The notes: a model not told the origin generated them from the letters alone. Counted from the first letter of the stretch, positions 1,810 through 13,136 are shown. The stretch: 64,000 nucleotides of DNA from an uncultured Gammaproteobacteria bacterium (GCA_964402565.1 CAYOCJ010000001.1:352079-416078); one strand, 5' to 3'. Numbers and translations: made by a program.

Positions 1810-2086
1810 TTGGATCATCTATTGAAGGCGGCCGAGGGCTGAATTTAGGCGCCTGAATTTGCCACTTATCCACAAACTGGCCAATACCGTCTTTTTCGAG
1901 TTTTGCTGCACGACGTTTGTTTTTTTGCGACCATGCGACAAGGCTTTCGAAATGGATCTTGTAACGGTTATTAACCACAATATATCGTAAGTCCTGAGAT
2001 TTGATAGCATCTCGGATCGTTTTGGTAGATACCCCGAAAAGTCGAGCTGCCTCAGAAACTGATACTCTTATTATGTTTTCACTCAT
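1799..2086 (-). CDS. HTH_17 / excisionase-family helix-turn-helix DNA-binding protein
   Basis: 95-aa ORF. An N-terminal HTH (VSEAARLFGVSTKTIRDAIK) is followed by a basic C-terminal tail. The gene is convergent with the upstream gene and overlaps it by 11 nt. A TATACT box lies 13 nt upstream of its ATG on the minus strand. Confidence 0.6.
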   Translation of the reverse strand: MSENIIRVSVSEAARLFGVSTKTIRDAIKSQDLRYIVVNNRYKIHFESLVAWSQKNKRRAAKLEKDGIGQFVDKWQIQAPKFSPRPPSIDDPITK

Positions 2087-2245
2087 GTTAATATTCTACA
2101 CTAGTATAGAGTTATTTTCAATTGTATTATTTGAAAGTGTATATTGGTGTAGAACCTTTATTGTTTTAAATAAATGCATCCTGACCGTTCAGGAAGTATA
2201 TATATTATCAGCTGTGTCTCAAATAACAGCTAAGTACTAAAATAC

Positions 2246-2274
2246 TTTACATTTAGCATCCTATTCTGTATAAT
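2246..2274 (+). promoter_or_regulatory. near-consensus sigma70-type promoter (TTTACA-17nt-TATAAT) directed toward the ECF sigma gene
   Basis: Read directly from sequence: TTTACA at 2246-2251, a 17-nt spacer, then TATAAT at 2269-2274. Confidence 0.5.
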
Positions 2275-2291
2275 ATCCCAACTGTTTAGAT

Positions 2292-2320
2292 AAACTTGTT
2301 TCGTGTGAAACGTCTTGTTT
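2292..2320 (+). promoter_or_regulatory. candidate ECF-type/autoregulatory promoter element (AAACTTGTT TCGTGTGAAAC GTCTTG)
   Basis: The 9-mer AAACTTGTT is followed by GTGTGAAAC. The same 9-mer plus GTGAGTGAAAT recurs at 4309-4335. AACTT resembles the -35 (GGAACTT) of RpoE-like ECF promoters. Confidence 0.3.
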
Positions 2321-2364
2321 CATAGAATAATGACAATTTGCTGAAAATATAGCTAATATTAGAG

Positions 2365-2385
2365 CCTAAGTACTTAGGTCTTTTT
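2365..2385 (+). promoter_or_regulatory. perfect 14-bp palindrome CCTAAGTACTTAGG followed by a TCTTTTT tract (leader attenuator/terminator-like or palindromic operator)
   Basis: Seen in sequence between the sigma70-like promoter and the sigma gene start. The stem is 5-7 bp and the T-run is on the + strand only. Confidence 0.35.
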
Positions 2386-2430
2386 CTATATTAGAGGTGT
2401 AACATTAGGCAGAAAATCGCGACTTACTAT

Positions 2431-2988
2431 ATGAAGGGCATTAAGGATACATTGAAAGAGAAGATTGCGCTTCTGCGTTTACGGCAGGGCGACACTGAAG
2501 CATTCGGCTTCATATACGATTCATATATTGAAAAGATATATCGATATATTTACTTTCGAGTCTCGGATACTGGGCTAGCACACGATATCTCACAGGAAGT
2601 ATTTATCCAGACATGGGAATATATCGTCAGCCAGAATACGATCGATAGTTTACAATCATTTCTGTACCGCGTTGCCTACCATAAGATTGTAGACCACTAT
2701 CGATCAAAAGAACGGCAAGCAGTATTGATCGATGACATCGCGGAGGATATCAAGGCACCGGAAACAGTGAGCAAGGAAATCGATCTGGTTTTTTTAAGAA
2801 AGAACATTGCCAAGCTGAAACAAGAGTATCAGGACGTATTGCTTCTCAGGCACGTTGAAGGACTTTCGATAGCTGAGATAGCAGACATTATAGAGAAAGA
2901 ATCAACGAATGTGCGCGTGCTGCTGCATCGAGCAACGGCAGCGCTGAAAGAGGCGTACGACAGTCCGCAGACCAACAATAAGCATTGA
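2431..2988 (+). CDS. RNA polymerase sigma-70 family ECF sigma factor
   Basis: 185 aa. Region 2 reads FIYDSYIEKIYRYIYFRV and region 4 reads LLLRHVEGLSIAEIADII..VRVLLHRATAALK, which is an HTH. The size is typical of ECF sigmas. Confidence 0.85.
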   Translation: MKGIKDTLKEKIALLRLRQGDTEAFGFIYDSYIEKIYRYIYFRVSDTGLAHDISQEVFIQTWEYIVSQNTIDSLQSFLYRVAYHKIVDHYRSKERQAVLIDDIAEDIKAPETVSKEIDLVFLRKNIAKLKQEYQDVLLLRHVEGLSIAEIADIIEKESTNVRVLLHRATAALKEAYDSPQTNNKH

Positions 2989-2989
2989 A

Positions 2990-4288
2990 ATGAATTTTAA
3001 TCAACACATCTCGAAGTTAAAGAAACTGCCAGAAGTTAATCTGGATAAGCAAAGCATTCTTTTGGGGAAGCATCAGTTGCTTGCTGAAATTAATAATCGC
3101 CAGGATTCCCGCGCTGGCGCTATTTTGACTTGGGCTGAGGCGTTCCGTTTTATGTGGCTTCGGATGCTGCGCAAGATCGTTCCGGCTGAGCGCGTTGTCA
3201 TTGCAGGTCTATTGGTCATTACACTTACGGTATCTTCGACCTATATGGCGCAAGCTGCAGTTCCTGGAGATATTCTCTGGCCACTGAAGCTGACCTATGA
3301 GAAAGCAGAGATCGCCTTAGCGACGGACGCAGCCTCAGAAGGGCGCATCCATATCCGGCATGCTGATAATCGCTTGAAAGAATTGACCGTCATAGCTGCC
3401 CGGCCGAATACCCCTGAGAAGAGCAAGAATATTTCTCAGCTGGTCCGGCGTTTAGAGAAAGATATTACTGCAGCAGACCAAAGTCTAAAGCTTACTAAGG
3501 AAGAAAAGAAAGACAGCGAGCCGCAGGTGATCATGGCTCTCGCACAGGATCTCAGCGACACCGCGTTGCAAGCGGCGACTGCTTTGAACGAAAATCATGA
3601 TCTCTTGGGAACAGATGCAGGGCAAGGATCAGAGCAAGGGCTTGCCGGGAGCGATGTCCTTGCAACAAGCACTGATGCGGCCGTGAGCACCGGAAGCCAG
3701 AATTCGTCCACGGTCCCGACCTCAACGGCGCTGTTAGACTCGACTGAGAATGAGAACGCAACTGCTGCAACCGAAGCAGCAAAAGTAGTTGCCGAAGTGC
3801 AGGCGGTCAATATTGAAGTTTCATACACGGCTCTGAGCGCTATGATCGAAGTGATCGAAGCTCCTGGGTCTGTCGTCAACCGTACCGAAGTTAATCGTCT
3901 CATGCAGCAGAAAGTCACCGGGCTTGCCAGCCGTCTGCCGGCATTGCAGGAGAAAATAGCGTTAGTTGACGACGATTATCTTCTGCATCGTAATGAGTTG
4001 AAATCACTATTGAAAAAAACGACTGAAGCATTAGGACTGGCAGGCGATTTGATCAAGCTCGATAACCTCAGCGGCTCATTTAAACAGACGCAGGATGCGA
4101 AAGATATGATGAGCAGCATGGATGAGCTGCTTGATGAGGTTGCAAGCGGCAATGGTTTTAATAAGCCAAAACCGAAAGTCGAACCACCAGCATTGCTCAA
4201 ACCAACGCCAGTAGGCCAGGTAAAGATCCAGAGCGTTGATGATCCAAATCAAGATGCAGCAGTGATAGATCCGGTCGTTACTGAATAG
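2990..4288 (+). CDS. DUF5667-like membrane protein, putative anti-sigma factor partner
   Basis: Its start is 1 nt after the sigma stop. A single TM helix (VVIAGLLVITLTV) is followed by PGDILWPLKLTYEKAEIAL, which is DUF5667-like, and a long coiled-coil-like extracytoplasmic region rich in A/E/K/T. Confidence 0.55.
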   Translation: MNFNQHISKLKKLPEVNLDKQSILLGKHQLLAEINNRQDSRAGAILTWAEAFRFMWLRMLRKIVPAERVVIAGLLVITLTVSSTYMAQAAVPGDILWPLKLTYEKAEIALATDAASEGRIHIRHADNRLKELTVIAARPNTPEKSKNISQLVRRLEKDITAADQSLKLTKEEKKDSEPQVIMALAQDLSDTALQAATALNENHDLLGTDAGQGSEQGLAGSDVLATSTDAAVSTGSQNSSTVPTSTALLDSTENENATAATEAAKVVAEVQAVNIEVSYTALSAMIEVIEAPGSVVNRTEVNRLMQQKVTGLASRLPALQEKIALVDDDYLLHRNELKSLLKKTTEALGLAGDLIKLDNLSGSFKQTQDAKDMMSSMDELLDEVASGNGFNKPKPKVEPPALLKPTPVGQVKIQSVDDPNQDAAVIDPVVTE

Positions 4289-4308
4289 CGTTATTTTCGT
4301 TTGTTAGA

Positions 4309-4335
4309 AAACTTGTTCTTTGTGAGTGAAATTAA
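4309..4335 (+). promoter_or_regulatory. second copy of AAACTTGTT..GTGAGTGAAAT motif (candidate ECF-dependent promoter of the surface-protein gene)
   Basis: AAACTTGTT is at 4309-4317, followed by CTTTGTGAGTGAAAT. It lies 20 nt after the anti-sigma-like stop codon. Confidence 0.3.
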
Positions 4336-4771
4336 TCAGCAGGTAAACGGGCACACCCATGCTTGCCGCAGTACTAGTTAAGGACGCGAAGCGCTGAAAT
4401 TCGCTTCGGCGATTTGCGCCCTTAACTAAATGTACTTTTAGACCCACGGTCTGAAGGAGCGTTTGGAAACGCTTATGCGCGCGTACATAAGGGGAACGTT
4501 TACTTTCCTTTGCACAGTGTACACTGGCAAAGGGTCTAACTCGCGTTCATTGCGAAACTATCGTCCAGAACGCTGAAGTGTCGCTCCATTAGGTTGTGTC
4601 CCCGACATTACGTCGGGGGTGTCAGCAAGGTCGACTCCGTAACAACGGAGGGCCGCAATACTAATGAACCTCTGCATACAAGCAGAGCCACGCTGTGCCT
4701 ATCGGCATAGGGCGGAGGGTGTACTTTAGTGGGATCGTAGGCGCAATCGAACGACTAAGAAAAAGAACTAA
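4336..4771 (+). ncRNA. long ORF-free, hairpin-dense region: candidate structured 5' leader or novel cis-regulatory/non-coding RNA preceding the giant surface-protein gene
   Basis: No ORF of at least 60 aa in any frame across about 480 nt. At least 8 clean hairpins are visible. Examples are AGUUAAGG..CCUUAACU enclosing GCGAAGCG..CGCUUCG, CCCCGAC-AUUA-CGUCGGGG, CUCCGUAACAACGGAG, CUCUGCAUACAAGCAGAG, GCCUAUCGGCAUAGGG, AGCGUUUGGAAACGCU and CAGUGUACACUG. Confidence 0.4.
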
Positions 4772-7700
4772 ATGAATCTACTCAAGAAAGTTTCATTGAG
4801 CGCATTGATGTTCGTAACAGTGTTCAGCATTGGCGGTTTTGGCTCTGTCAAAATGGCTCATGCAGCGACTCTCATGGCGGGTGATCTCGTCAAGGGACCG
4901 AATTCGGACGCTGTCTACTACATTGACGGCACGATGAAGCACGTATTCCCTGACAAGGGAACGTACATGACGTGGTACAGCAATTTCGATGCAGTGAAAA
5001 AAGTAACTGTAGCGGACTTGGACATGTACTCAACTGGTTCTGCAGTAGCATACCGCCCAGGTACCTATCTGGTGAAAACACCGGACAGTGCTTTCGTGTA
5101 TGCAGTCGAACCAGGCGGCAAGTTGCGCAAGATCCCATCTGAGAGCGTAGCAATGGCTCTCTATGGCTCTAGCTGGGCAAAATGGATCCGGGATATTCAT
5201 CCTCTGACCATGAGCACCACCTATGCCGTGACTTCCAATGATATGACCGCTGCCGCTCCTTCAGTCGGCACGGTCTTACAGAAGACTGGTGATTCAACCA
5301 TCTACTACTTTGATGGTACGAATATCCGTCCGTTTGCATCCTCAGCAGCATTTGATGCGAATAACCTGAACTGGGACTACGTGGTCAAGGTTTCATCCTT
5401 GGGCACCTGGACCGTCGGTTCTTCAATCACTGGCGCTGAGACCTTTGCAACGATTTCAGGTGTTGGTACAAGCGTCGTCACCGGTCCTGCCGGTAATTTG
5501 ACGGTAGCTTTGTCACCAAACACTCCAGCTGCGAATGGTATTCTCCTTGGTGGCGCTGCACGCGTTCCAATGACGACCGTTCGTTTGACCGCCGGCAGCA
5601 CCCCGGTGATCATCGATTCTTTGACGATCGAGCGAAAGGGTGTTGCAAGTGATTCTGAATTCGCAAGCTTTGATTTGCTCGATGGTAACACCATGTTGCC
5701 GTTGAATGATTCAAGCAAGTCTTTGAACTCGAATCACCAGGCTGTGTTCAATGATGACATCACCGTTCCTGCGAATGCATCGTGGGATGTGATCGTCTCA
5801 GCAAACATGGCTGCTGATCTTTCTGCTGTCGCTGGCGAATACCCAGTGATCTCAGTTGCAGGTATGGTCTTGAAGAACAATTCAACCATGTCAGGCACTT
5901 TGCCGATCATGGGTAATGTCTTCTTGTCGAACGGTACTATTACCGTCGGTACCGCAACTATTGCTTCAGGTTCAAACAACCCATCAGCAGTAACCAAGCA
6001 GGTTGGTCAGAAAGATTACATCGTTACGTCCATCAAGGTTACCAATAATTCGAGTGCTACTGGTCAGAACATGACTTTGAAGTCTGTGACCTTCACGAAC
6101 AATGGTTCTACGTCACCAACTGACGTTGCAAACCTGCGCTTGGTGAACTCGAATACGGGTGTTACCTTGGGAACTATGGCAACGGTAACTGGCGACAAGG
6201 TCAGCTTCACGAATTTGAACCTTCCAATCTTGAAGGGTAACAATGTGAACCTCGATCTTAAGCTTGATATCGTTGGCGGTTCTGGTCGTACTATCGATTA
6301 TGATGTCCAGAAGCAGGGAGATGTCGTCGTCTTCGACGAACTCCGTGGCTACAACGTCTTACCGACCTATCCAAATTCTTCAGAGCCATACTTCAACGCA
6401 GCAGCAGCTACGGTGGATAATGGCCATCTCCGCATTGAGTCTGTAGCAGTTGCTACTCAGACCATTCAGGAGAACAAGAACGGCGTTTTGATCGGTAAGT
6501 TCAAGTTCGTCGTCGAAGGTGAGCCGATCAACATTACTCGCCTTCCGATCAAGACTATCTTGAACACTTCAACGGCTGGTGCGAATATCACTGATATTAC
6601 CAACATCACCTTGAAGGATCCGGCTGGAATGGCTGTTGTTTCAGGACAGGATCCGACTTCAAATGGTTGGAGTGCAAACTCGAACTCAGATCAGGTCGGT
6701 ACTGCAACGACAACTGACACCTTCACTGCTCCTATCGGTGAAACCGTGTATTCTGTCTACGCAGACTTGTCTAGCGACTTCAGTGCGAACGACACGATCC
6801 AGACTCAGATCAACCCGGCAATGGTAATTGCAAAGGGTGATACGACTGGCGATACCTTGACGAACTCAACCGACATCACTCCGACTGTTGACGTAACTGG
6901 TTCAACCATGACCGTCAAATCAGTCGACTTGAATGTTTCTGTTTCTTCTTCACCAGCTGCTCAGACCTTGGTCGCGGGCGCTTCTGAAGTCGAAGTCGCA
7001 GACATCGTTCTCGACGCAGCAACTTCAGGCTCTGATGTTCGTGTGACTCAGTTCAAGATCCCGGTCAAGACGACTGCCCCGGTATTCCCGGACATCGTCA
7101 CGAGCTTCAAGATCTATGTTGGCGGAGTGCAAGTTCCAGTTGATTCAACTTCAACTTCGTACTCAACCGCAGGCTCAACCGCAGGCGGCAACGCTACCAC
7201 CACTTTGACCATCGCAACTGGCAATCTCACTATTCCAGCACTTCAGTCCAAGACCGTAGTGATCAAGGCGAATATTGGAACTGGTGCGACCAGCGGCTCA
7301 TTCAAAGTCGGTTCACAGGTTGATTCGATCACCGCAATTGACTCTGAAGGCCAGACCTTCACCCCAGATTACACACCAAATGACGGTCAATCGATGACCT
7401 TGTCAGGCGGCGGTATCTTGAACATCTCGAATGCAACTGATCCTCGCGCAGGCATGGTTGTCGGTAACACAACGACTGTTGTCGGCCAGTTCACCGCTCA
7501 GGCGAAGAACGACACGATCAAGTTGAATTCATTCGGATTCACGATCCAGGCACCTGATCAGGGTCGCCAGGGCACAACTATCGCAGACCAGTTGAATGGT
7601 CTCGAAGTTTGGGAACTGGGCGGCGGATCAGCCTTGGGCACCGCTTTGGTGACAGGAAATAACGCAACCGTTACTCCTTCATCACCGATTAGCTTGTCCA

Positions 7701-8530
7701 TCAACTCGTCGAAGACCTACGTGGTCAAGGCGAACTGGAAGCTTATTGACCACTTGACCTCACCAGCAGTATCTGGCGGCGGTCTCAAGGTCAATATGAC
7801 CAACGTTGATACGACAGGTCAGGCAGCTGGTTCTTCAACGGTAACGTTGAACGGAAACGGCACAGCCTTCAATACTCAGAGCTCGTTCTTGTCGACTCCG
7901 ACCGTAACGTTGGATTCTGCATCGAACACGATCTCGGGTTCTGGTGTCTTTGATCTCTTCAAGTTCCACATCACGCCAAGCGCAGGCGGTCCAGTCGGTA
8001 TTGCCAAGCTCAGCTTCGGCATCACGACTTCGACGGTCAGCGTTGCGGGTGGCGGATTCCAGCTCTATCAGTCTGATTCATCAGGCTCACAGGGTAACTT
8101 GATCTCAGGTAATACTGACTTCAAGTCTATCTTCGCTGGAACTGCTGGTTCAAAGTCACTTGTTGCTGAAGCTCGTATGGATAACTCCGATACGAACAGC
8201 TACAACACGACTGACTCTGGTGAGAACTTCTACTTCTCTGGTACGAAGTACTTCACCTTGCGCGGTACGATCTCAGGTCACACTGGATCCAGTACTGACA
8301 GCGAAAGCGTCGCAACGGTCCTTGCTGGTGATGCAGCATATGCCAGCTCGAGCCTTGTGAACTATGCAGCAGTCGACGGAACAGACACTGGATTGGATGA
8401 CTTCATCTGGTCCGATCTGAACTTTGACCTTAACTCAACAACTGCTACGCAGAACTTGGGTTGGTTCAATGGATTCCGTGTACCGGGCTTGGATAACAAC
8501 TCAACGACTGCAGAAACGATCAGTGGTTAA
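4772..8530 (+). CDS. giant secreted Thr/Ser/Gly/Asn-rich cell-surface protein (S-layer/adhesin-like) with N-terminal tandem repeats
   Basis: 1252 aa. The signal peptide is MNLLKKVSLSALMFVTVFSIGGFGSVKMAHA. Repeated units include VYYIDGTMKHVFP, VYAVEPGGKLRKIPS and IYYFDGTNIRPFAS. No Cys is apparent. Numerous NxS/T sequons are present, and the long beta-rich T/S/G stretches are typical of Ig-like surface arrays. Confidence 0.7.
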   Translation: MNLLKKVSLSALMFVTVFSIGGFGSVKMAHAATLMAGDLVKGPNSDAVYYIDGTMKHVFPDKGTYMTWYSNFDAVKKVTVADLDMYSTGSAVAYRPGTYLVKTPDSAFVYAVEPGGKLRKIPSESVAMALYGSSWAKWIRDIHPLTMSTTYAVTSNDMTAAAPSVGTVLQKTGDSTIYYFDGTNIRPFASSAAFDANNLNWDYVVKVSSLGTWTVGSSITGAETFATISGVGTSVVTGPAGNLTVALSPNTPAANGILLGGAARVPMTTVRLTAGSTPVIIDSLTIERKGVASDSEFASFDLLDGNTMLPLNDSSKSLNSNHQAVFNDDITVPANASWDVIVSANMAADLSAVAGEYPVISVAGMVLKNNSTMSGTLPIMGNVFLSNGTITVGTATIASGSNNPSAVTKQVGQKDYIVTSIKVTNNSSATGQNMTLKSVTFTNNGSTSPTDVANLRLVNSNTGVTLGTMATVTGDKVSFTNLNLPILKGNNVNLDLKLDIVGGSGRTIDYDVQKQGDVVVFDELRGYNVLPTYPNSSEPYFNAAAATVDNGHLRIESVAVATQTIQENKNGVLIGKFKFVVEGEPINITRLPIKTILNTSTAGANITDITNITLKDPAGMAVVSGQDPTSNGWSANSNSDQVGTATTTDTFTAPIGETVYSVYADLSSDFSANDTIQTQINPAMVIAKGDTTGDTLTNSTDITPTVDVTGSTMTVKSVDLNVSVSSSPAAQTLVAGASEVEVADIVLDAATSGSDVRVTQFKIPVKTTAPVFPDIVTSFKIYVGGVQVPVDSTSTSYSTAGSTAGGNATTTLTIATGNLTIPALQSKTVVIKANIGTGATSGSFKVGSQVDSITAIDSEGQTFTPDYTPNDGQSMTLSGGGILNISNATDPRAGMVVGNTTTVVGQFTAQAKNDTIKLNSFGFTIQAPDQGRQGTTIADQLNGLEVWELGGGSALGTALVTGNNATVTPSSPISLSINSSKTYVVKANWKLIDHLTSPAVSGGGLKVNMTNVDTTGQAAGSSTVTLNGNGTAFNTQSSFLSTPTVTLDSASNTISGSGVFDLFKFHITPSAGGPVGIAKLSFGITTSTVSVAGGGFQLYQSDSSGSQGNLISGNTDFKSIFAGTAGSKSLVAEARMDNSDTNSYNTTDSGENFYFSGTKYFTLRGTISGHTGSSTDSESVATVLAGDAAYASSSLVNYAAVDGTDTGLDDFIWSDLNFDLNSTTATQNLGWFNGFRVPGLDNNSTTAETISG

Positions 8531-8574
8531 TCCACGTTCGGGTCTGACAGTGTAGTTGTATCTACGTAACAGCA

Positions 8575-8612
8575 TCCCTCCCTCGTTTATTCGGGGGAGG
8601 GACTGTTATTTG
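8575..8612 (+). terminator. rho-independent terminator of the surface-protein gene
   Basis: The stem is TCCCTCCC (8575-8582) paired with GGGAGGGA (8595-8602), the loop is TCGTTTATTCGG, and a CTGTTATTTG U-rich tail follows. Confidence 0.6.
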
Positions 8613-8685
8613 TGTGAAATATTATGAGATGGAGGAGTGTAGACAGTGATGCCGGAATACTGTACAGTATATCCACATTTGGCCT

Positions 8686-9477
8686 ATGAAAACGTATCGG
8701 AAGGTATTGTTGATCGTCATTCTCCTATTACTCGCAGCCGCAGCTGCGCGTTTTTGGTATTCGCGGCAGGGTTCGTCTCCAGCACAAAAAACCGATCAGC
8801 AAGCGCATATTACTGAAGTTGTCAAACAAATGCAGACATTGGAATTCAAAAAAACTGATATCCCCAACGATCAGAAAAAGCTAATTACTGATGGATTTGC
8901 AAGCGAGGTCAAAAAACTTATTAGTGCAGCAAAACTCCTTGATACAAACCGGGATGCGGCTTATGCGAATTTATTCTGGCCATTAAATGATATCGGCGCA
9001 TTCAACCGCCAGACAGGTGACTATGGGAAAGCCGAGCTTGCATTTCAGACAGCGCATGAGCTCGTGCCATCTGCCTATGTGCCATTAGGCAATTTGGGTG
9101 ACCTGTACTCAGATGCAGCCTCGCCGTTGCTCAATGATACCAAGGCAGCAGAGAGCTATGAGCAGGCCCTGGCAGCAATCGGCGCTGACCAAAAAGGGGC
9201 AGATGCCGGGATCTATGACACGTACCTGGAAACGTACTATAATGATCTGTATGTGATCTATCGATTCCGTTTTAATGATCCTGCAAAAGCTGAGAAGTTT
9301 TTGATCGATGGCGTAAAGAAATTCCCCAAAGTTTTGAATATCCTTGCTTATCTTGCTCTGTACTACCGCGATACCAATCAGATCGACAAAGCGATCTCGC
9401 GGTACCATGAATTACTGGTCAAAGATCCGAAGAGCATCGCAGCGCAAGAAGCTTTGCAGCAATTAGAAGCTAAGTAA
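8686..9477 (+). CDS. membrane-anchored TPR-like helical-repeat protein
   Basis: An N-terminal TM anchor (VLLIVILLLLAAAAA) is followed by helical-repeat, TPR-like sequence. It is 7 nt upstream of the O-antigen-ligase/TPR gene. Confidence 0.45.
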   Translation: MKTYRKVLLIVILLLLAAAAARFWYSRQGSSPAQKTDQQAHITEVVKQMQTLEFKKTDIPNDQKKLITDGFASEVKKLISAAKLLDTNRDAAYANLFWPLNDIGAFNRQTGDYGKAELAFQTAHELVPSAYVPLGNLGDLYSDAASPLLNDTKAAESYEQALAAIGADQKGADAGIYDTYLETYYNDLYVIYRFRFNDPAKAEKFLIDGVKKFPKVLNILAYLALYYRDTNQIDKAISRYHELLVKDPKSIAAQEALQQLEAK

Positions 9478-9484
9478 CATCACC

Positions 9485-11971
9485 ATGAGATCAATGAATA
9501 GTTTCCTGAAACAGCCGATCAATACCTGGATCATCCGAGTGATCAGTTTTTTGGCGATTGTCTTGACGCTTGTTCCGATGGTGACTTTTTCTAATATCTA
9601 TTTCCCCTATATTGTACCGCGCAACGATTTTTTCAGGATCGTCGTCGCGCTCATGTTCGTACTCTATACGGTTTTAGTGATGCGCGACCGTAGCTATTTG
9701 CCGAAACGCGGATTGCCGCTGTATCTGCTTCTCGGGTTCCTTGCGTCAATGACGCTGTCGAGCCTTTTCGGCTCGGAGCCCTTGTATAGTTTCACGAGCA
9801 ATTTCGAGCGCATGGACGGGCTGGTGACGGTATATACGCTGGCGCTATTTTTCATCGTGGTGATCAGTGTATTCAAGTCCAGGGATCAGATTGAGCGTAT
9901 TTTGTGGGCCAGCCTGTTCGTAGCGTATATGACTGCGGTCATCGGCATCAGCCAGATCGTCGGCGTCAACTTACTCCAAAGTTCGTCAGGAGGAGAGCGT
10001 ATTACCGCGACTTTAGGCAATGCAACGTATCTGTCAGCGTACTTGCTGATCCACCTCTTTATAGCTTGTTATGCATTTATCCGTTCTCCGCGCGGCATTT
10101 TGACAAAGATGTTCATGTGGTTTTCTTTATTGCTTGATATCGTTTTGGTAGTGATCCATTTCCGATACGGCAGTCCCGATGGCCATGGAGGCATCTGGAA
10201 TCAGGTTTTTGGCGATCCACTTGTCGCGCTGTCATTCTGCATCATCCAGCTCCTAGCAGTGTTTCCCTTATTCTTCAAGGATAGATTCAGCATGCAGCTT
10301 CGCATCGATAAGTTCATCCCGGCCCTGCTGCTGTGCATGTTCGTACTTTTGATGATCAATACGCAGACTCGCGGTGCCATTATCGGTTTAGCCTTTGGCG
10401 CATTCGCGGTTCTTGTCGGTGGTTTCGCGAGCAAGCAATTTTCGAGGACAGCGCGTCTGGTCTGCGCAGGTTTTTTGCTTGCAGGCATTATCGGCGTCGG
10501 CGGCATTTTTATTTTTAAAGACAGCGCACTGATAAAATCCACTCCGGTTTTCCAAAAAATCAGCTCTATTTCATTTACTGATGCTACGACCCGTTCGCGT
10601 TTGGCGACATGGCATTCAGCGATCGAAGGCTTTGCAGAACGACCTGTCTTTGGATGGGGAGTGGAGAATTTCCAGGAACTTTTCAATAAACATTTTCCGA
10701 CCGAGATCTATACTGACGAAGGTACGCCGCTTTGGTTCGACAGGCCGCATAATTTGCTTTTGCAGTATCTTGCAGAAGGCGGAGTCATAGGCATCGGCCT
10801 CTATCTCGCATTTCTCATAACCTTGATCATTGCTTCGTTCAAAAAGCTTCCGCGCAAGGAGGCGCTCTTCCTGCTCGGATTCATTGTTGCGTATATCGGG
10901 CAGAATGTATTCGTTTTCGACAGCATTAATAGTTATTTGCCGTTGTATATCGTGCTTGCCTTCAGCTATGCGTCGATCTATGTTTATTCCGCCCAAGCGG
11001 TTGATGCCGAGAAAAAAGCTCTCGTGCCCAGGGTCGGAGGTGCTGCAGTGGTCATTGTCGTGGGCGCGGTCCTTTGGATGGGTTTGTGGTATACCGTTTT
11101 TTGGCCGTTGTCGGTCAATAAGGAATTTGTATCATATTATTTTGCGCAGACAAGCTCACAGACGCCAGGATATAAACCTGAGATCACGAAGAAAGTCTTT
11201 GACCTTATCGATCACAGCCCCTATCTAGGCCGAGCTGAGTTGTTGGGTGTGTATTCTGAATTTGCGGTGAGCCGCTTCCGAGATGATAATCCAAACGGTG
11301 ACGATATGAAATTTCTGGCCTCAGGACTCGAGGAGCGGTTCGATCGGGAGCGCGCACAGGGTTATACGAAAGATGCCCGTTTCAATATGTTTGAGCTGAA
11401 CTTGCTCCTGAACGCAGGGCAATTTGATCCGATATTTTACGAAAAGGCCCTCGCGCTCAGCAATGAAAGTATTCCATTAAGCCCTGATCGTCCGCAATTC
11501 TATTATATTCGCGGCAGGGTCTATATGAACATGAAGCAATATGATAAAGGTATTGCTGATTTCAAGCATGCGGTTGAGCTTGCACCGTTGATCCCTGAAG
11601 CGCATTCGAATTTGTTCGCGGCCTATGCGACCATGGGCGATAAGGATCATGCGCGTACTGAGCTCATGGAATTAAGCAAATTGATGCCATTTGATGCAAA
11701 AGCGATCGCGCATGCGACGAGCGTCTATGTAGCAGCGGGTCTCTATGATGAGGCAGTCAATCTATTGCAGGAAGCAATAGTAGAATTCCCGAGCGAGGAA
11801 GCGCAGTTCCATGTCGGTCTAGCGCAGGTATATGCCGCATCAGGTGATGCAAAGACGGCCAGAAAAGAAATGGAAACAGCGGTAAAACTTGATCCAAGTA
11901 TCGCTCAGTATACCGAAGACTTCTATAAAAAGCTGGACGCAGGCGAGCTTACGCGGAAGAAGGCTCAGTAG
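9485..11971 (+). CDS. O-antigen ligase/polymerase-like (Wzy_C) polytopic membrane protein fused to C-terminal TPR repeats
   Basis: 828 aa. More than 10 TM helices and a Wzy_C signature (WFDRPHNLLLQYLAEGGVIGIGLYLAFL). C-terminal TPR units are present, for example YYIRGRVYMNMKQYDKGIADFKHAVELAP. Confidence 0.7.
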   Translation: MRSMNSFLKQPINTWIIRVISFLAIVLTLVPMVTFSNIYFPYIVPRNDFFRIVVALMFVLYTVLVMRDRSYLPKRGLPLYLLLGFLASMTLSSLFGSEPLYSFTSNFERMDGLVTVYTLALFFIVVISVFKSRDQIERILWASLFVAYMTAVIGISQIVGVNLLQSSSGGERITATLGNATYLSAYLLIHLFIACYAFIRSPRGILTKMFMWFSLLLDIVLVVIHFRYGSPDGHGGIWNQVFGDPLVALSFCIIQLLAVFPLFFKDRFSMQLRIDKFIPALLLCMFVLLMINTQTRGAIIGLAFGAFAVLVGGFASKQFSRTARLVCAGFLLAGIIGVGGIFIFKDSALIKSTPVFQKISSISFTDATTRSRLATWHSAIEGFAERPVFGWGVENFQELFNKHFPTEIYTDEGTPLWFDRPHNLLLQYLAEGGVIGIGLYLAFLITLIIASFKKLPRKEALFLLGFIVAYIGQNVFVFDSINSYLPLYIVLAFSYASIYVYSAQAVDAEKKALVPRVGGAAVVIVVGAVLWMGLWYTVFWPLSVNKEFVSYYFAQTSSQTPGYKPEITKKVFDLIDHSPYLGRAELLGVYSEFAVSRFRDDNPNGDDMKFLASGLEERFDRERAQGYTKDARFNMFELNLLLNAGQFDPIFYEKALALSNESIPLSPDRPQFYYIRGRVYMNMKQYDKGIADFKHAVELAPLIPEAHSNLFAAYATMGDKDHARTELMELSKLMPFDAKAIAHATSVYVAAGLYDEAVNLLQEAIVEFPSEEAQFHVGLAQVYAASGDAKTARKEMETAVKLDPSIAQYTEDFYKKLDAGELTRKKAQ

Positions 11972-13136
11972 TTTTGTAAAAACGCAAGTACAATTCTTCA
12001 GTTTTCTGAAGCATCTTGTCGAGAGTGAATTCTTCTCGCACCTTTTTTTGTAATGCATGCGACATAGATGCACGGAGTTTCGGGTCATCGTAGAAGGCCG
12101 CAAGCGCTAATGCAATGTCCTGTGCATTGCCCGGCTCTACCAAAAGTCCAAAAACCTGATGTTCAATGATCTCAGGGATGCCGCCGACTCTGCTGGCGAT
12201 GACCGGGACTCCTGCAAGGCCCGCTTCCAAAATCGCTAAAGGAAGTCCTTCCTTCAGCGACGGCAGAATACTTATATCAAATGCCTTCAACAGGCGTGAG
12301 GCATTGGGTACTGCACCATGGAATTGAACTGAATCTAAAATGCCTAAATTAGTGGCTTGTGTTTCAAGGTCTTTGCGCAGAGGGCCATCACCAAGGATCG
12401 AGAATTTCATTTTTTTATCACGCGGCAGTAATTGTATAGCATCCAGCAGTGCTGATAGACCTTTTGTAGGGTAGAGAGCTGCAATAGTACCAACGACAAA
12501 ACTGTCTTCTGGAATGTGTAATTGTGCACGAGCTTCTGATCGTGTGAGAAGCTCTTGTTTCGTATTAATGCCGTTGTGAATGACAACCATCCGCGCATCA
12601 GGAGCGATCTTATGTTGTATACCTTGTTGTTTATCATAGTCTGAGACGCATATCAGCGCGCCTTTCCAGCCCGCTGAGACTTTCTCAATGATGCGGTACA
12701 CCTGTTTTTTGAGAGCGGGGAGCGGTTCATTAAAAACAAAACCGTGTACGGTATAGATAACACGGATAACTTTATTTAACGGGTCGAAGCGATAGAGCCA
12801 AGCGGCGCATGCGCCGATCGCGCCTGCCATGGAGCTGTTGATATGAATAAAATCTGGTTGTTCGTTTTTGAGAAGTTTTCTGATTTCGAGTGTCGCCTCC
12901 CAGGCTTTCACCAGAGAGATGTCACGGATTAAACTATGAATGATGATCGGTTCGATACCGAGCGCACGAGCCTCAGCGAAAAATTGTGCGTCCTGATTTT
13001 TTTCTTCGCCGACCGCGATCAGAACTTGATTATGTTGCGAAAAAAAACGTGCGAGTTCGAGCAGATATTTTTGGGCACCACCATATTTGCTCTGGGTTAT
13101 GAGTAAAATGATTTTTTTCTTGTCAAGTCGGTCCAT
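11949..13136 (-). CDS. GT4-family glycosyltransferase
   Basis: GT-B C-terminal motif LKEGLPLAILEAGLAGVPVIASRVGGIPEII. The 3' end overlaps the convergent upstream gene by 23 nt. Confidence 0.8.
   Translation of the reverse strand: MDRLDKKKIILLITQSKYGGAQKYLLELARFFSQHNQVLIAVGEEKNQDAQFFAEARALGIEPIIIHSLIRDISLVKAWEATLEIRKLLKNEQPDFIHINSSMAGAIGACAAWLYRFDPLNKVIRVIYTVHGFVFNEPLPALKKQVYRIIEKVSAGWKGALICVSDYDKQQGIQHKIAPDARMVVIHNGINTKQELLTRSEARAQLHIPEDSFVVGTIAALYPTKGLSALLDAIQLLPRDKKMKFSILGDGPLRKDLETQATNLGILDSVQFHGAVPNASRLLKAFDISILPSLKEGLPLAILEAGLAGVPVIASRVGGIPEIIEHQVFGLLVEPGNAQDIALALAAFYDDPKLRASMSHALQKKVREEFTLDKMLQKTEELYLRFYKTTEPSSA

Follow-up and report, generated by a model that had tools for sequence, protein, structure and literature searches.

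Organization and Conservation of the Locus

The region analyzed here is a 64-kb window, the whole stretch of DNA under study, whose plus strand carries, in order, a gene for an ECF sigma factor (2431–2988), a gene for a DUF5667 single-pass membrane protein (2990–4288), a long structured spacer (4289–4771), a gene for a very large secreted protein (4772–8530) and an intrinsic terminator-like hairpin with a U-rich tail (8570–8612). These features had been proposed in an initial annotation, and all are present at its coordinates; the 1-nt gap that it placed between the sigma and DUF5667-like genes agrees with the ends of the open reading frames (ORFs) at 2988 and 2990, and the surface-protein gene is indeed the largest in the window, with 1252 codons for amino acids against 828 in the next largest ORF. 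Divergent from the sigma gene, on the minus strand, lies a gene for an HTH_17/excisionase-type DNA-binding protein (1799–2086; Pfam HTH_17, E = 4.8e-9; NCBIfam excisionase-family domain), and a membrane-anchored HtrA-family PDZ protein is encoded near the cassette (661–1809); judged by eye, this PDZ protein seems to lack catalytic residues. Downstream of the large gene, Pfam identifies a TPR protein (8686–9477, plus strand) and a Wzy_C (O-antigen-ligase-like) plus TPR membrane protein (9485–11971, plus strand), followed by GT4 glycosyltransferases.

The host lineage is Komeilibacteria-type Patescibacteria, and what the region carries is an envelope cassette conserved among Patescibacteria of the ABY1 type. 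The order minus-strand HTH gene, ECF sigma, DUF5667 membrane protein, long spacer, secreted protein of about 1250 aa and terminator is shared by about 75 of 80 species-level genomes, and the same order is found in independent metagenome contigs; the HTH_17 gene is detected by tblastn upstream of sigma, on the minus strand, in most loci. Across the large-protein family, which covers over 532 genomes, a same-strand sigma gene and a DUF5667-family ORF lie upstream at nearly every locus with sufficient upstream DNA, and searches started from DUF5667 recover the identical cassette. The initial description of a self-contained module is thereby upheld as a real, syntenic unit. Judged by this gene order, the cassette of ECF sigma, membrane partner, leader RNA and giant surface protein is kept throughout one class of the ultra-small CPR/Patescibacteria. 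The initial annotation had also held that sigma/DUF5667 pairs occurring without the surface protein would speak against the module; such pairs do exist in a distant class (L100–L106), where a non-homologous PG_binding_1-TIG/PKD surface protein is encoded nearby instead. The surface-protein gene near a distant-class pair has its own sigma70-type promoter (TTGACA-18-CATAGT) and no ECF site.

The ECF Sigma Factor and Its Promoter

The sigma factor (185 aa) consists of sigma2 and sigma4 only (Pfam Sigma70_r2 at residues 28–95; Sigma70_r4_2 at residues 126–171), and both this domain set and its size, within about 170–200 aa, are those of ECF (group IV) sigma factors. It scores 69 bits against the ECF superfamily model TIGR02937 (cut-off 42.9), and its relatives in the PDB are ECF sigmas, namely 6dxo_A, SigW and SigH. 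The best specific NCBIfam model is TIGR02952, the BldN family; since its score of 114.8 bits falls below the family cut-off of 206.45, the protein was rejected as a BldN equivalog.

Just upstream lies an ECF-type, putatively autoregulatory promoter (2398–2423, plus strand), with the -35 element TGTAAC at 2398–2403, a 16-nt spacer, the -10 element CGAC at 2420–2423 and 7 nt to the ATG at 2431; TGTAAC-N16-CGAC conforms to the pattern of autoregulated ECF promoters, whose -35 element includes AAC and whose -10 element includes CGT. The arrangement is stereotyped at the sigma gene as TGTAAY-N16-CGWC-N7-ATG: TGTAAY-N16-CG[AT][CA] occurs upstream of sigma in 48 of 76 unique loci, in most at exactly 7 nt from the called start, and the median best position weight matrix (PWM) score upstream of sigma is 22.4 versus about 0 in controls. 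In the 64-kb window, the site at 2398–2423 is the sole match to the PWM and also to the regular expression. It can be inferred that the sigma factor transcribes its own gene from TGTAAY-N16-CGWC, and because the -10 element stands only 7 nt from the sigma ATG, the mRNA is apparently leaderless or nearly so. In total, 61 of 79 loci have an ECF-type promoter upstream on the same strand as the unit, 52 of them before sigma and 8 between sigma and DUF5667, with one more in L065, where it precedes the DUF5667 gene and no sigma gene is nearby. The promoter thus stands directly before the DUF5667 gene in 9 loci, including L065, and it stays with the DUF5667 and large-gene unit where sigma has been displaced or is missing (L020, L065 and others). 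The remaining 18 of 79 loci, mostly high-GC and Uhrbacteria-like, lack a PWM match at any upstream position. A sigma70-type promoter-like site, TTTACA-17-TATAAT (2246–2274, plus strand), also precedes the ECF promoter and agrees with 11 of 12 consensus positions; about 16 loci of the Komeilibacteria clade carry TTTACA-N17-TATAAT at a distance of about 110–155 nt 5' of the ECF -35 element.

The DUF5667 Membrane Protein

The second gene encodes a protein of 432 aa that matches PF18915 over residues 90–188 (E = 1.9e-9; 38.3 bits, gathering threshold 27). Hydropathy gives a short cytoplasmic N-terminus, a single hydrophobic segment at about residues 64–88 and an ectodomain of about 345 aa, in line with the one transmembrane helix described initially. 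In all clades, one homologous DUF5667 family lies 3' of sigma, sharing a conserved N-terminal motif and the core PGDxLYPxKLxxEKAxL, and the junction with sigma, a 1-nt gap here, is an overlap in other loci. Pfam and NCBIfam searches at E<=0.01 returned no known anti-sigma domain and no zf-HC2, and the protein contains no Cys at all; assignment to the classical class I or zinc-binding (ZAS) anti-sigma factors therefore failed, there being no Cys and no zf-HC2/RskA-type match. Similarly, an RsbN-type assignment (PDB 6C03) failed by sequence, as the PDB sequence search gave only noise at E<=10. From its genetic position and topology, the DUF5667 protein is most likely the anti-sigma factor of the adjacent sigma.

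The Structured Spacer and Its RNA Motif

The 483-nt spacer (4289–4771, plus strand) folds at -194.6 kcal/mol, with z = -8.55 against dinucleotide shuffles (opposite strand, z = -6.5). Orthologous spacers reach z = -5.3 to -10.6, and the median spacer z in a 24-locus sample is -6.4 versus -3.0 for coding controls. Neither a tRNA nor a tmRNA was found, and the ORF signal of the spacer is not above that of shuffles. Neither the 64-kb window nor 10 related loci gave a gathering-level match in Rfam 15, and at E<=5 within 2000–9000 the sole match was a chance snoRNA inside a coding region. The spacer contains a hairpin, H1 (UAGUUAAGG...CCCUUAACUA; inverted repeat I3, 4375–4428, plus strand), which is confined to the Komeilibacteria clade; in the consensus fold of 11 leaders, 26 pairs are predicted, 10 of them with double compensatory changes, and all of these are in H1. 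It is followed by a conserved sequence island, UGCGCGCG...AAGGGGAACGUUUAC (4476–4503, plus strand), made of invariant or near-invariant columns in alignments A1 and A6 and seen in an anchored view of about 20 loci.

The core RNA motif lies at 4618–4659 (plus strand) and comprises helix P1, the asymmetric internal loop CAAGGUCGA (box 4626–4633), hairpin P2 (ACUCCGU/ACGGAG) and P1'; P1 is bulged in the window. Family-wide, the motif consists of helix P1, the internal loop MAAGGUCGR and helix P2. Covariance model R2, run over both strands of the whole window, has its top match at 4621–4653 (16.5 bits, E about 0.16). The loop 7-mer is present in 68 of 76 spacers, against 1.7 expected (P about 1e-86). 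All 15 modelled pairs show double changes, and 92.9% of cells are paired, compared with 52.6% for shuffles and no more than 47.9% when partners are slid, both measures being taken on an alignment fitted to the model. The structured leader of the initial annotation is real and has a covarying RNA motif inside it. By its position, orientation, unpaired nucleotides and covariation, the motif is a conserved structured RNA of cis-regulatory type; it is previously undescribed and absent from Rfam.

The strong structure and covariation, together with the lack of an Rfam match, would also suit a separate non-coding RNA gene that acts in trans and happens to lie between the two protein-coding genes, and one extra R2 match falls off-site in an ORF-poor stretch (L023:1328–1372). 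Against this, 43 of the 44 family matches lie at one place and in one orientation, on the plus strand directly 5' of the large gene; the spacer varies from 125 to 1319 nt among loci, with a module of about 45 nt as its sole universal part; terminators are uncommon between the motif and the large gene; and model R2 found no second copy in the window. We regard a trans-acting RNA gene as very improbable.

Transcription of the Surface-Protein Gene

ECF sites are found before the large gene in 0 of 75 spacers, whose best scores equal those of controls; sigma70-like promoters are not enriched there (10 vs 8 and 6), and no fixed-distance or position-specific signal was found upstream of the RNA motif. 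Searches with promoter consensus sequences are weak evidence in little-studied organisms. The terminator that closes the unit 3' of the large gene has a hairpin core at 8575–8602 of 11 bp, 8 of them G-C, and the extended hairpin 8570–8607 folds at -25.1 kcal/mol; with its U-rich tail it corresponds to the intrinsic terminator first proposed at 8575–8612. A terminator-like site occurs within 200 nt 3' of the large gene in 52 of 63 loci, whereas one is present in only 19 of 76 spacers, about 4 of them directly after the DUF5667 stop. Co-transcription of sigma, DUF5667, leader and large gene is the simplest reading, because the spacer has no ECF- or sigma70-type promoter signal and few terminators, and terminators follow the large gene. 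As the large gene has no ECF promoter of its own in any locus, control by the sigma factor would be possible only through read-through.

Alternatively, the large gene may have its own, unrecognised promoter in the spacer, with the leader as its 5' UTR, and the sigma/DUF5667 pair may monitor the coat or wall and control genes elsewhere; the surface protein would then be the input or context of the circuit, not its output. A very abundant coat protein more usually has its own strong promoter, and for S-layer genes a strong promoter of their own and a long, stabilising 5' UTR are the usual case. This alternative would also accommodate the lack of ECF sites before the large gene, the sigma70-type promoter of the distant-class surface-protein gene, the terminators right after the DUF5667 gene in L002, L064, L079 and L080, and spacers reaching 1.3 kb. 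It is opposed by the missing sigma70-like enrichment in the spacers, although the same genomes carry near-consensus TTTACA-N17-TATAAT elsewhere, by the missing fixed-distance signal 5' of the RNA motif, by the ECF promoter that is kept with the DUF5667 and large-gene unit when sigma is displaced or absent, and by the absence of any further ECF-type site in the 64-kb window. We consider a separate promoter a real, if tentative, possibility. The initial proposal of a circuit dedicated to this one surface protein is borne out in part: the linkage is strong, most loci have the upstream ECF promoter and terminators follow the large gene, but the large gene lacks an ECF promoter and the L100–L106 pairs lack the large protein.

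The Surface Protein and Its Neighbors

The 1252-aa protein has a Sec-type signal peptide (residues 1–31, ...KMAHA|A), an N-terminal alpha/beta triple repeat (about residues 32–230), a short linker and a string of beta-sandwich (Ig-like) domains. It contains 0 Cys, carries a net charge of -35 and is composed of T 12.8, S 11.1, G 9.7 and N 6.9%, compared with 5.6, 7.0, 6.4 and 3.7% in the other long ORFs of the window, as expected from its first description as a secreted, Cys-free, T/S/G/N-rich protein. It has no Pfam or NCBIfam match, and the 89 homologs found carry only CPR/Patescibacteria names where the source is named. AlphaFold models residues 32–1231 with pLDDT 88.6 and pTM 0.46, and the N-domain with pLDDT 93.1 and pTM 0.87. 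In Foldseek, the body matches Ig-like strings, best of all adhesin stalks (PrgB, AgI/II, Bap) and integrin legs; the N-domain matches EccB repeats (E 5e-4, prob 0.97, low TM; marginal) and phage lysin-associated domains. It has been reported that the EccB1 repeat weakly resembles the cell-wall-binding PlyCB (PMC4769845). In its predicted fold, the N-terminal triple repeat looks wall-binding and EccB/PlyCB-like, and some relatives have SLH or PG_binding_1 at its position, in its stead.

Structure prediction, suggested at the outset for telling an S-layer protein from an adhesin, yields a model of a triple repeat followed by an Ig-like string, but the matches do not decide between the two. Bacteria of this group are thought to be episymbionts, and an adhesin or fibril for attachment to a host, as opposed to an S-layer that forms a lattice, would fit the Ig-like chain with its adhesin-stalk and integrin-leg matches, the restriction of body matches to generic Ig-like strings, the low overall pTM, which suggests beads on a string, and the absence of solved S-layer proteins among the high-ranking Foldseek matches. 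The composition, however, is S-layer-typical (acidic, Cys-free, Thr/Ser-rich), the N-terminal module is swapped for SLH or PG_binding_1 in relatives, Wzy_C and glycosyltransferase genes adjoin as in S-layer glycosylation loci, and hundreds of genomes keep the gene at a fixed locus as a single conserved copy. An adhesin seems the less likely of the two, and the protein is probably an S-layer-like glycoprotein coat anchored to the wall, as far as its sequence and model indicate. A Wzy_C-like gene lies downstream of the large gene in 43 of 59 loci, and glycosyltransferases are also found downstream in L001 and L002; the Wzy_C/TPR protein is a likely glycosylation or assembly partner of the surface protein.

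Comparison with Known Systems

In the sigma-BldN/RsbN system, an ECF sigma and a single-pass anti-sigma control a surface sheath, the anti-sigma gene is a target of the sigma, and feedback from sheath assembly has been proposed (PMC6101532). Like this Streptomyces system, with its chaplin/rodlin sheath, the cassette pairs an ECF sigma with a single-pass partner that has a short cytoplasmic part and a large ectodomain (of unknown function in RsbN) and whose gene would itself be a target of the sigma, and the pair is tied to a secreted, putative cell-surface coat protein; the DUF5667 protein, like RsbN, shows no similarity to classical anti-sigma domains, and BldN is the best specific NCBIfam family for the sigma. 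Unlike BldN, however, the sigma stays at 114.8 bits against a cut-off of 206, and BldN (PDB 6C03) is outside its significant PDB matches; the cytoplasmic part of the DUF5667 protein is about 60 aa, compared with 117 aa in RsbN, and the surface gene lacks its own sigma-type promoter and lies in cis behind a structured RNA. Similarly, the sigmaE-RseA-DegS system of E. coli and SigW-RsiW of Bacillus share with the cassette a promoter of the autoregulated ECF kind, its -35 element including AAC and its -10 element CGT, a co-transcribed single-pass anti-sigma (here presumed) and, nearby, an HtrA-family PDZ protein. The cassette differs from them in that the DUF5667 protein lacks an anti-sigma domain of the zinc-binding or RseA type, the PDZ protein seemingly has no catalytic residues (by eye), the mRNA is apparently leaderless and the circuit is fixed beside one giant surface-protein gene.

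S-layer genes can have long structured 5' UTRs, and long surface or polysaccharide operons have leader elements such as ops/JUMPStart-RfaH and the LoaP leader hairpins. In a comparison drawn from general knowledge, the spacer resembles both kinds as a long leader before a long, probably highly expressed surface gene and in having a short invariant element within conserved helices; by this likeness, a role in mRNA stabilisation, processing or processive antitermination is plausible. It differs in that the MAAGGUCGR loop matches no Rfam family, and neither a NusG paralogue nor another partner was identified. Gram-positive S-layer glycoproteins have SLH anchors and slg-type glycosylation loci. 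The large protein is like them in its Sec signal peptide, in its predicted N-terminal wall-anchoring module followed by an assembly or display part, in its acidic, Cys-free, Thr/Ser-rich composition, in the adjoining genes for a Wzy_C-type putative O-oligosaccharyltransferase and glycosyltransferases, and in the true SLH domain of some family members. It differs in its EccB/PlyCB-like N-terminal fold and is unrelated to known S-layer families by sequence or Pfam; any lattice would be conjectural.

Proposed Mechanism and Significance

The most economical explanation, to which we give about an even chance, is one sigma-dependent unit of sigma, DUF5667, leader RNA and surface protein, with a coat product and ectodomain feedback, because neither an ECF- nor a sigma70-type promoter, and in most loci no terminator, was found between DUF5667 and the large gene, and a strong terminator follows the latter. 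In such a unit, the ECF sigma would transcribe its own gene into an apparently leaderless mRNA, and the DUF5667 protein made from the next gene would hold the sigma as its anti-sigma. Transcription would read through the leader into the large gene and stop at the terminator; the leader RNA would probably uncouple surface-protein output from that of the two regulators, by way of a binding, processing or stabilising site or of an antitermination or translation-control site. The surface protein would be anchored to the wall by the triple repeat, with its Ig-like chain projecting outward, and probably be glycosylated by the downstream Wzy_C protein and glycosyltransferases. As RsbN-BldN and RseA-sigmaE suggest by analogy, the ectodomain of the DUF5667 protein may register the condition of the wall or coat and free the sigma. 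Given its class-wide conservation and its composition of sigma, membrane partner, leader RNA and surface protein, the cassette probably governs the building of the outer coat in this class of CPR/Patescibacteria.

Organization and Conservation of the Cassette

An ECF sigma factor, a DUF5667-like membrane protein, a structured leader, a very large surface protein and a terminator had been proposed in the initial annotation to form a self-contained module, and ORF listing, Pfam searches and folding recovered each of these elements where it had been placed. The sigma gene (2431–2988, + strand, 185 aa) matches Pfam Sigma70_r2 and r4_2 and, above its cut-off, NCBIfam TIGR02937, which confirms the ECF assignment; after a gap of 1 nt it is followed by the DUF5667 gene (2990–4288, +, 432 aa), whose product, the presumed anti-sigma factor, scores 38.3 bits against PF18915 (cut-off 27) and has a single hydrophobic segment at residues ~64–88. 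A spacer of 483 nt (4289–4771, +) then forms a genuinely structured leader, with a folding z of −8.55. The gene behind it (4772–8530, +, 1252 aa) is the largest ORF of the window, the runner-up having 828 aa, and encodes a protein with a Sec-type signal peptide, no cysteine, about twofold enrichment of T, S, G and N relative to the other window proteins, and a net charge of −35. It is closed by a terminator-like hairpin with a U-rich tail (8570–8612, +; stem of 11–15 bp, −25.1 kcal/mol).

Homologs of the large surface protein that carry a source name come exclusively from CPR/Patescibacteria (Komeili-, Kerfeld- and Uhrbacteria); in a scan of one genome per species at least 532 genomes encode a relative, and Falkow- and Magasanikbacteria join, by record title, among its 80 best loci. 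The test of synteny suggested by the initial annotation was made by tblastn of the window proteins against 85 loci, and the gene order is kept in nearly all loci with enough upstream DNA: where at least 2.5 kb is available, the sigma gene almost always lies on the same strand, 1.3–3 kb upstream of the large gene, with a DUF5667-family ORF in between; an HTH_17 gene usually stands on the opposite strand ahead of sigma. Gene calls and Pfam gave the same order in four graded homologs, from 64% down to 35% identity. In all clades compared, the ORF following sigma belongs to one homologous family, with the cytoplasmic motif LKxL---PDxxW---RxxLLSQI, then one transmembrane segment, and the conserved core PGDxLYPxKLxxEKAxL. 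Searches starting from the DUF5667 protein recover the same cassette (L086, L087), also in an independent metagenome collection (L091–L097); word-indexed DUF5667 searches returned 8 and 14 matches. The module is thus a real unit, ancient within ABY1, and the cassette is plausibly a single transcription unit. Many metagenome genomes of TPA records labelled ‘uncultured Gammaproteobacteria bacterium’ (L007, L009, L010, L012–L015 and others) carry this CPR-specific cassette, and the organism names on those records look wrong.

Predicted Nature of the Large Surface Protein

Residues 32–1231 of the large protein were modelled with AlphaFold from a 64-sequence alignment. In the model (pLDDT 88.6), three alpha/beta repeats make up an N-terminal module, which a short disordered linker joins to a long series of beta-sandwich domains; the pTM of 0.46 fits a flexible chain. 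Modelled alone, the N-domain reaches pLDDT 93.1 and pTM 0.87; its best Foldseek match is to the EccB repeat domains of type VII secretion (E 5e-4, prob 0.97), and for its single repeats the matches are small phage proteins and also domains found in CHAP, amidase and lysin proteins. It has been reported that the EccB1 repeat weakly resembles the cell-wall-binding protein PlyCB, and peptidoglycan binding was suggested but not proven (PMC4769845). In the two homologs checked (P0088 and P0054), the triple repeat is replaced at the N-terminus by SLH or PG_binding_1, which indicates that the wall anchor is exchanged as a module within the family; a precomputed PG_binding_1 match also falls somewhere in homologs P0067 and P0089.

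Downstream of the terminator (8686–13136) lie genes for a TPR protein, a membrane protein with Wzy_C (O-antigen-ligase-like) and TPR regions, and GT4 glycosyltransferases, a conserved putative glycosylation cluster beside the surface-protein gene, with Wzy_C found downstream in 43 of 59 loci. One locus (L003) adds a PMT_2 protein glycosyltransferase. The N-domain matches, the homologs with SLH or PG_binding_1, the composition and these TPR, Wzy_C and glycosyltransferase neighbours together point to a wall-anchored coat protein, probably glycosylated. As to whether it is an S-layer protein or an adhesin, for which AlphaFold and Foldseek had been proposed as the check, the N-domain looks wall-anchor-like, but the body matches only generic Ig-like strings (PrgB, AgI/II, integrin legs, mastigonemes), and an adhesin is possible.

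Promoters of the Cassette

The sigma gene is preceded by TGTAAY-N16-CG[AT][CA] in 48 of 76 unique loci, a motif that bears the AAC/CGT hallmarks of ECF promoters and in most of the 48 ends exactly 7 nt from the start codon; in the window it reads TGTAAC (2398–2403) and CGAC (2420–2423) ahead of the ATG at 2431 (+). Its position implies that the sigma factor would autoregulate, and because the spacing to the start codon is so short, the sigma mRNA would be leaderless or nearly so. Scanned over the 64-kb window, a PWM built from the sigma-upstream sites returns a single site, and so does the core regex of the promoter. Among 79 unique loci, 61 carry a strong ECF site upstream of the large gene on the same strand. 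It precedes sigma in 52 of them and separates sigma from the DUF5667 gene in 8; in the remaining one (L065) it stands before the DUF5667 gene, and the 4 kb upstream contain no sigma gene. The promoter therefore tracks the unit of DUF5667 gene and large gene. The 18 loci without a PWM match are mostly high-GC and Uhrbacteria-like, and may use a diverged motif.

No ECF-type site was found in the spacer of any locus, the nearest lying 1.2 kb from the start codon of the large gene. With relaxed spacing, the best spacer score has a median of −0.1, compared with 0.0 for reverse complements, 0.7 for shuffles and 22.4 for sequence upstream of sigma. AAC-N16-CGT-like strings in some Komeilibacteria leaders, such as TTGAAC-N16-CGTT in L003, were considered as candidate ECF promoters of the large gene; since the spacers score no better than reverse-complement or shuffled controls and the spacing of the strings varies (14–17 nt), they were dismissed as a general feature. 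In the initial annotation, transcription of the large gene from its own sigma70 promoter alone was a finding that would count against the proposed circuit. The window spacer has no sigma70-type site of at least 10/12, and such sites are unenriched in spacers generally (10 of 76, against 8 and 6 in controls); the same genomes carry a near-consensus TTTACA-N17-TATAAT upstream of the ECF promoter (2246–2274 in the window). With loci anchored on the leader RNA motif, no position-specific signal appeared upstream of it. Of 63 loci, 52 have a terminator-like site in the 200 nt behind the large gene. Only 19 of 76 spacers, which amount to 2.8 times more sequence, contain one; most spacer sites are weak or internal, and about four directly follow the DUF5667 stop codon. 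Co-transcription of the large gene from the upstream promoters is the simplest reading, although we consider a dedicated promoter that escaped recognition about equally probable.

Several further features surround the ECF promoter. The sigma70-type site lies ~125 nt upstream of the ECF −35 in the window and is kept ~110–155 nt upstream of it in ~16 Komeilibacteria-clade loci. A palindrome (GCTAATATTAG / CCTAAG..CTTAGG) and a T-run come after it at ~2351–2387, and the arrangement could represent two promoters in tandem, an operator of the divergent HTH protein, or a short transcript ended by attenuation. The direct repeat AAACTTGTT.C.TTGTGA (2292 and 4309) was considered as a shared operator and discarded, not being conserved in the sigma upstream region of L010; in the window it is probably due to chance. 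The same probably holds for a 14-nt inverted repeat (I6): 2374–2387, immediately before the ECF promoter, has 93% complementarity to 4758–4771, where the ribosome-binding region of the large gene lies; a T-run faces an A-run, and conservation in L010 is weak. The product of a conserved gene further upstream (661–1809, +; ~25 loci) is a divergent member of the HtrA/DegP family, membrane-anchored and carrying a PDZ domain (PDB 8kic_D, E 5.5e-7), in which the catalytic His and Ser, judged by eye, are seemingly replaced; a DegS-like, possibly inactive protein beside a sigma/anti-sigma pair is suggestive.

The Leader RNA Motif

The most novel concrete result is an RNA motif in the leader. Orthologous spacers fold with z = −5.3, −8.5 and −10.6, and in a 24-locus sample the median was −6.4, compared with −3.0 for coding controls of the same length. 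As a small ORF the spacer gave no signal beyond shuffles; no tRNA or tmRNA was detected in it, and Rfam families had no match in the window spacer or in those of ten other loci. Komeilibacteria-clade leaders share a long hairpin (4375–4428 in the window), to which the ten pairs showing double compensatory changes are all confined; they also share the islands UGCGCGCG and AAGGGGAACGUUUAC (4476–4503) and the box CAAGGUCG (4626–4633). The box is the universal element of the leaders: its AAGGTCG 7-mer occurs on the + strand of 68 of 76 spacers, where 1.7 copies would be expected and 71 are present (P ~1e-86).

The box forms part of an asymmetric internal loop (consensus MAAGGUCGR) bounded on one side by the closing helix P1 and on the other by the hairpin P2; the helix sequences vary freely from locus to locus. 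The box is embedded in P1/P2-like helices in 46 of 78 cases in spacers and 88 of 819 elsewhere (Fisher P ~1e-21). Since a MAFFT alignment (A3) left the stems out of register, a covariance model was built instead from a geometry-matched seed of three sequences in two rounds of Infernal. In 1.14 Mb searched on both strands it gave 44 matches at E<1, of which 43 lie on the + strand directly upstream of the large gene; the minus strand yielded none. In the alignment, which was fitted to the model and so favours structure, paired cells amount to 92.9%, compared with 52.6% in shuffles and no more than 47.9% when partners are slid. Each of the 15 modelled pairs changes on both sides, and 0 of 500 shuffles reached the covariation score. 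The best match in the window on either strand is the leader site itself (4621–4653, 16.5 bits), whose copy is diverged and has a bulge in P1. The box lies ~100–155 nt from the start codon in one set of clades and 200–675 nt in others, and clade-specific domains sit ahead of the motif. For instance, ~20–80 nt upstream of it, Uhrbacteria-like loci (L038, L044, L047, L059, L074) share CCUGACGGGCGGGGGA...CCGCUCGU..AUCCUCGCC, and Falkowbacteria-like loci (L056, L070, L081, L083) share an AAUCCGC-AUUAAG-GCGGAUU hairpin. The sole match not upstream of the large gene (L023:1328–1372, +, 30.8 bits) lies in ~1 kb without an ORF of at least 60 aa, and could be a second copy or another RNA.

The conserved, single-stranded nature of the loop within its frame of helices suggests a site for protein binding or for processing. 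In the window (4618–4633) and in many loci, GGUC of the invariant loop can also pair with (G)ACC, the 5' strand of P1; a small alternative hairpin, GACC-AGCAA-GGUC, therefore competes with P1, and a conformational switch is possible. Distal mRNA stabilisation, antitermination and translational control are all plausible roles. More speculatively, and with considerable doubt on our part, P1-[MAAGGUCGR]-P2 might be a new class of cis-regulatory RNA, a protein or small-molecule site and possibly a switch, that gates coat synthesis across a CPR class within an ECF-driven operon, so that from a regulatory transcript made at low level the surface protein would be expressed at high level and under separate control.

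Distant Sigma/DUF5667 Pairs and Known Systems

A more distant class of loci on metagenome contigs (L100–L106), with sigma factors ~26% identical, has the pair followed by an EamA transporter and then a 545–581-aa protein with PG_binding_1 and TIG/PKD domains (for example, sigma/DUF5667 to surface-protein region at L105:1320–5770). No ECF site precedes the PG_binding_1-TIG/PKD gene in these loci; it has its own conserved sigma70-type promoter, TTGACA-18-CATAGT. It also has a conserved leader (..TAGTCGTYG..ATATCTATATTTT), and the distant-class sigma gene retains a TGTAAT/CGTAAG-N16-CGTC promoter. The proposed circuit dedicated to one surface protein accords with the strong linkage within the cassette, but here the pair occurs without that protein, a finding that the initial annotation had named as refuting the proposal and that in part does so. 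The distant class also shows that sigma/DUF5667 pairs are recurrently associated with wall-anchored Ig-like surface proteins. The proposed interpretation thus holds in part: the module is a conserved unit, direct control of the surface protein by sigma is putative, and the pair is not exclusive to the large-protein family.

In function, the nearest known counterpart is Streptomyces sigma-BldN/RsbN, an ECF sigma factor with a single-pass anti-sigma factor of novel fold, in which the RsbN-encoding gene is a target of sigma-BldN and the regulon encodes a surface sheath, and for which the authors speculated on feedback from sheath assembly (PMC6101532). The window pair does not belong to that system: its sigma factor scores under the BldN-family cut-off, BldN (PDB 6C03, the RsbN–BldN complex) is not among the PDB matches of that sigma factor, and the DUF5667 protein matches no solved chain. 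The literature searched on DUF5667, the CPR S-layer, ECF sigma factors in CPR and Komeilibacteria yielded no description of the cassette and no paper naming DUF5667.

Significance

CPR/Patescibacteria form a large, almost wholly uncultured share of bacterial diversity, and their dependence on hosts is believed to run through the cell surface; to our knowledge, almost nothing has been described of their regulation. The RNA motif is new and strongly covarying, and is a candidate entry for RNA family databases. The large-protein family, with its confident structural model, is a candidate major surface (S-layer-like) protein of ABY1 lineages. The cassette is one of the few regulatory circuits in reduced CPR genomes that can be read from sequence, with its promoter motif, leaderless design and DUF5667 partner, and such a circuit would give DUF5667, so far without a known function, a role.
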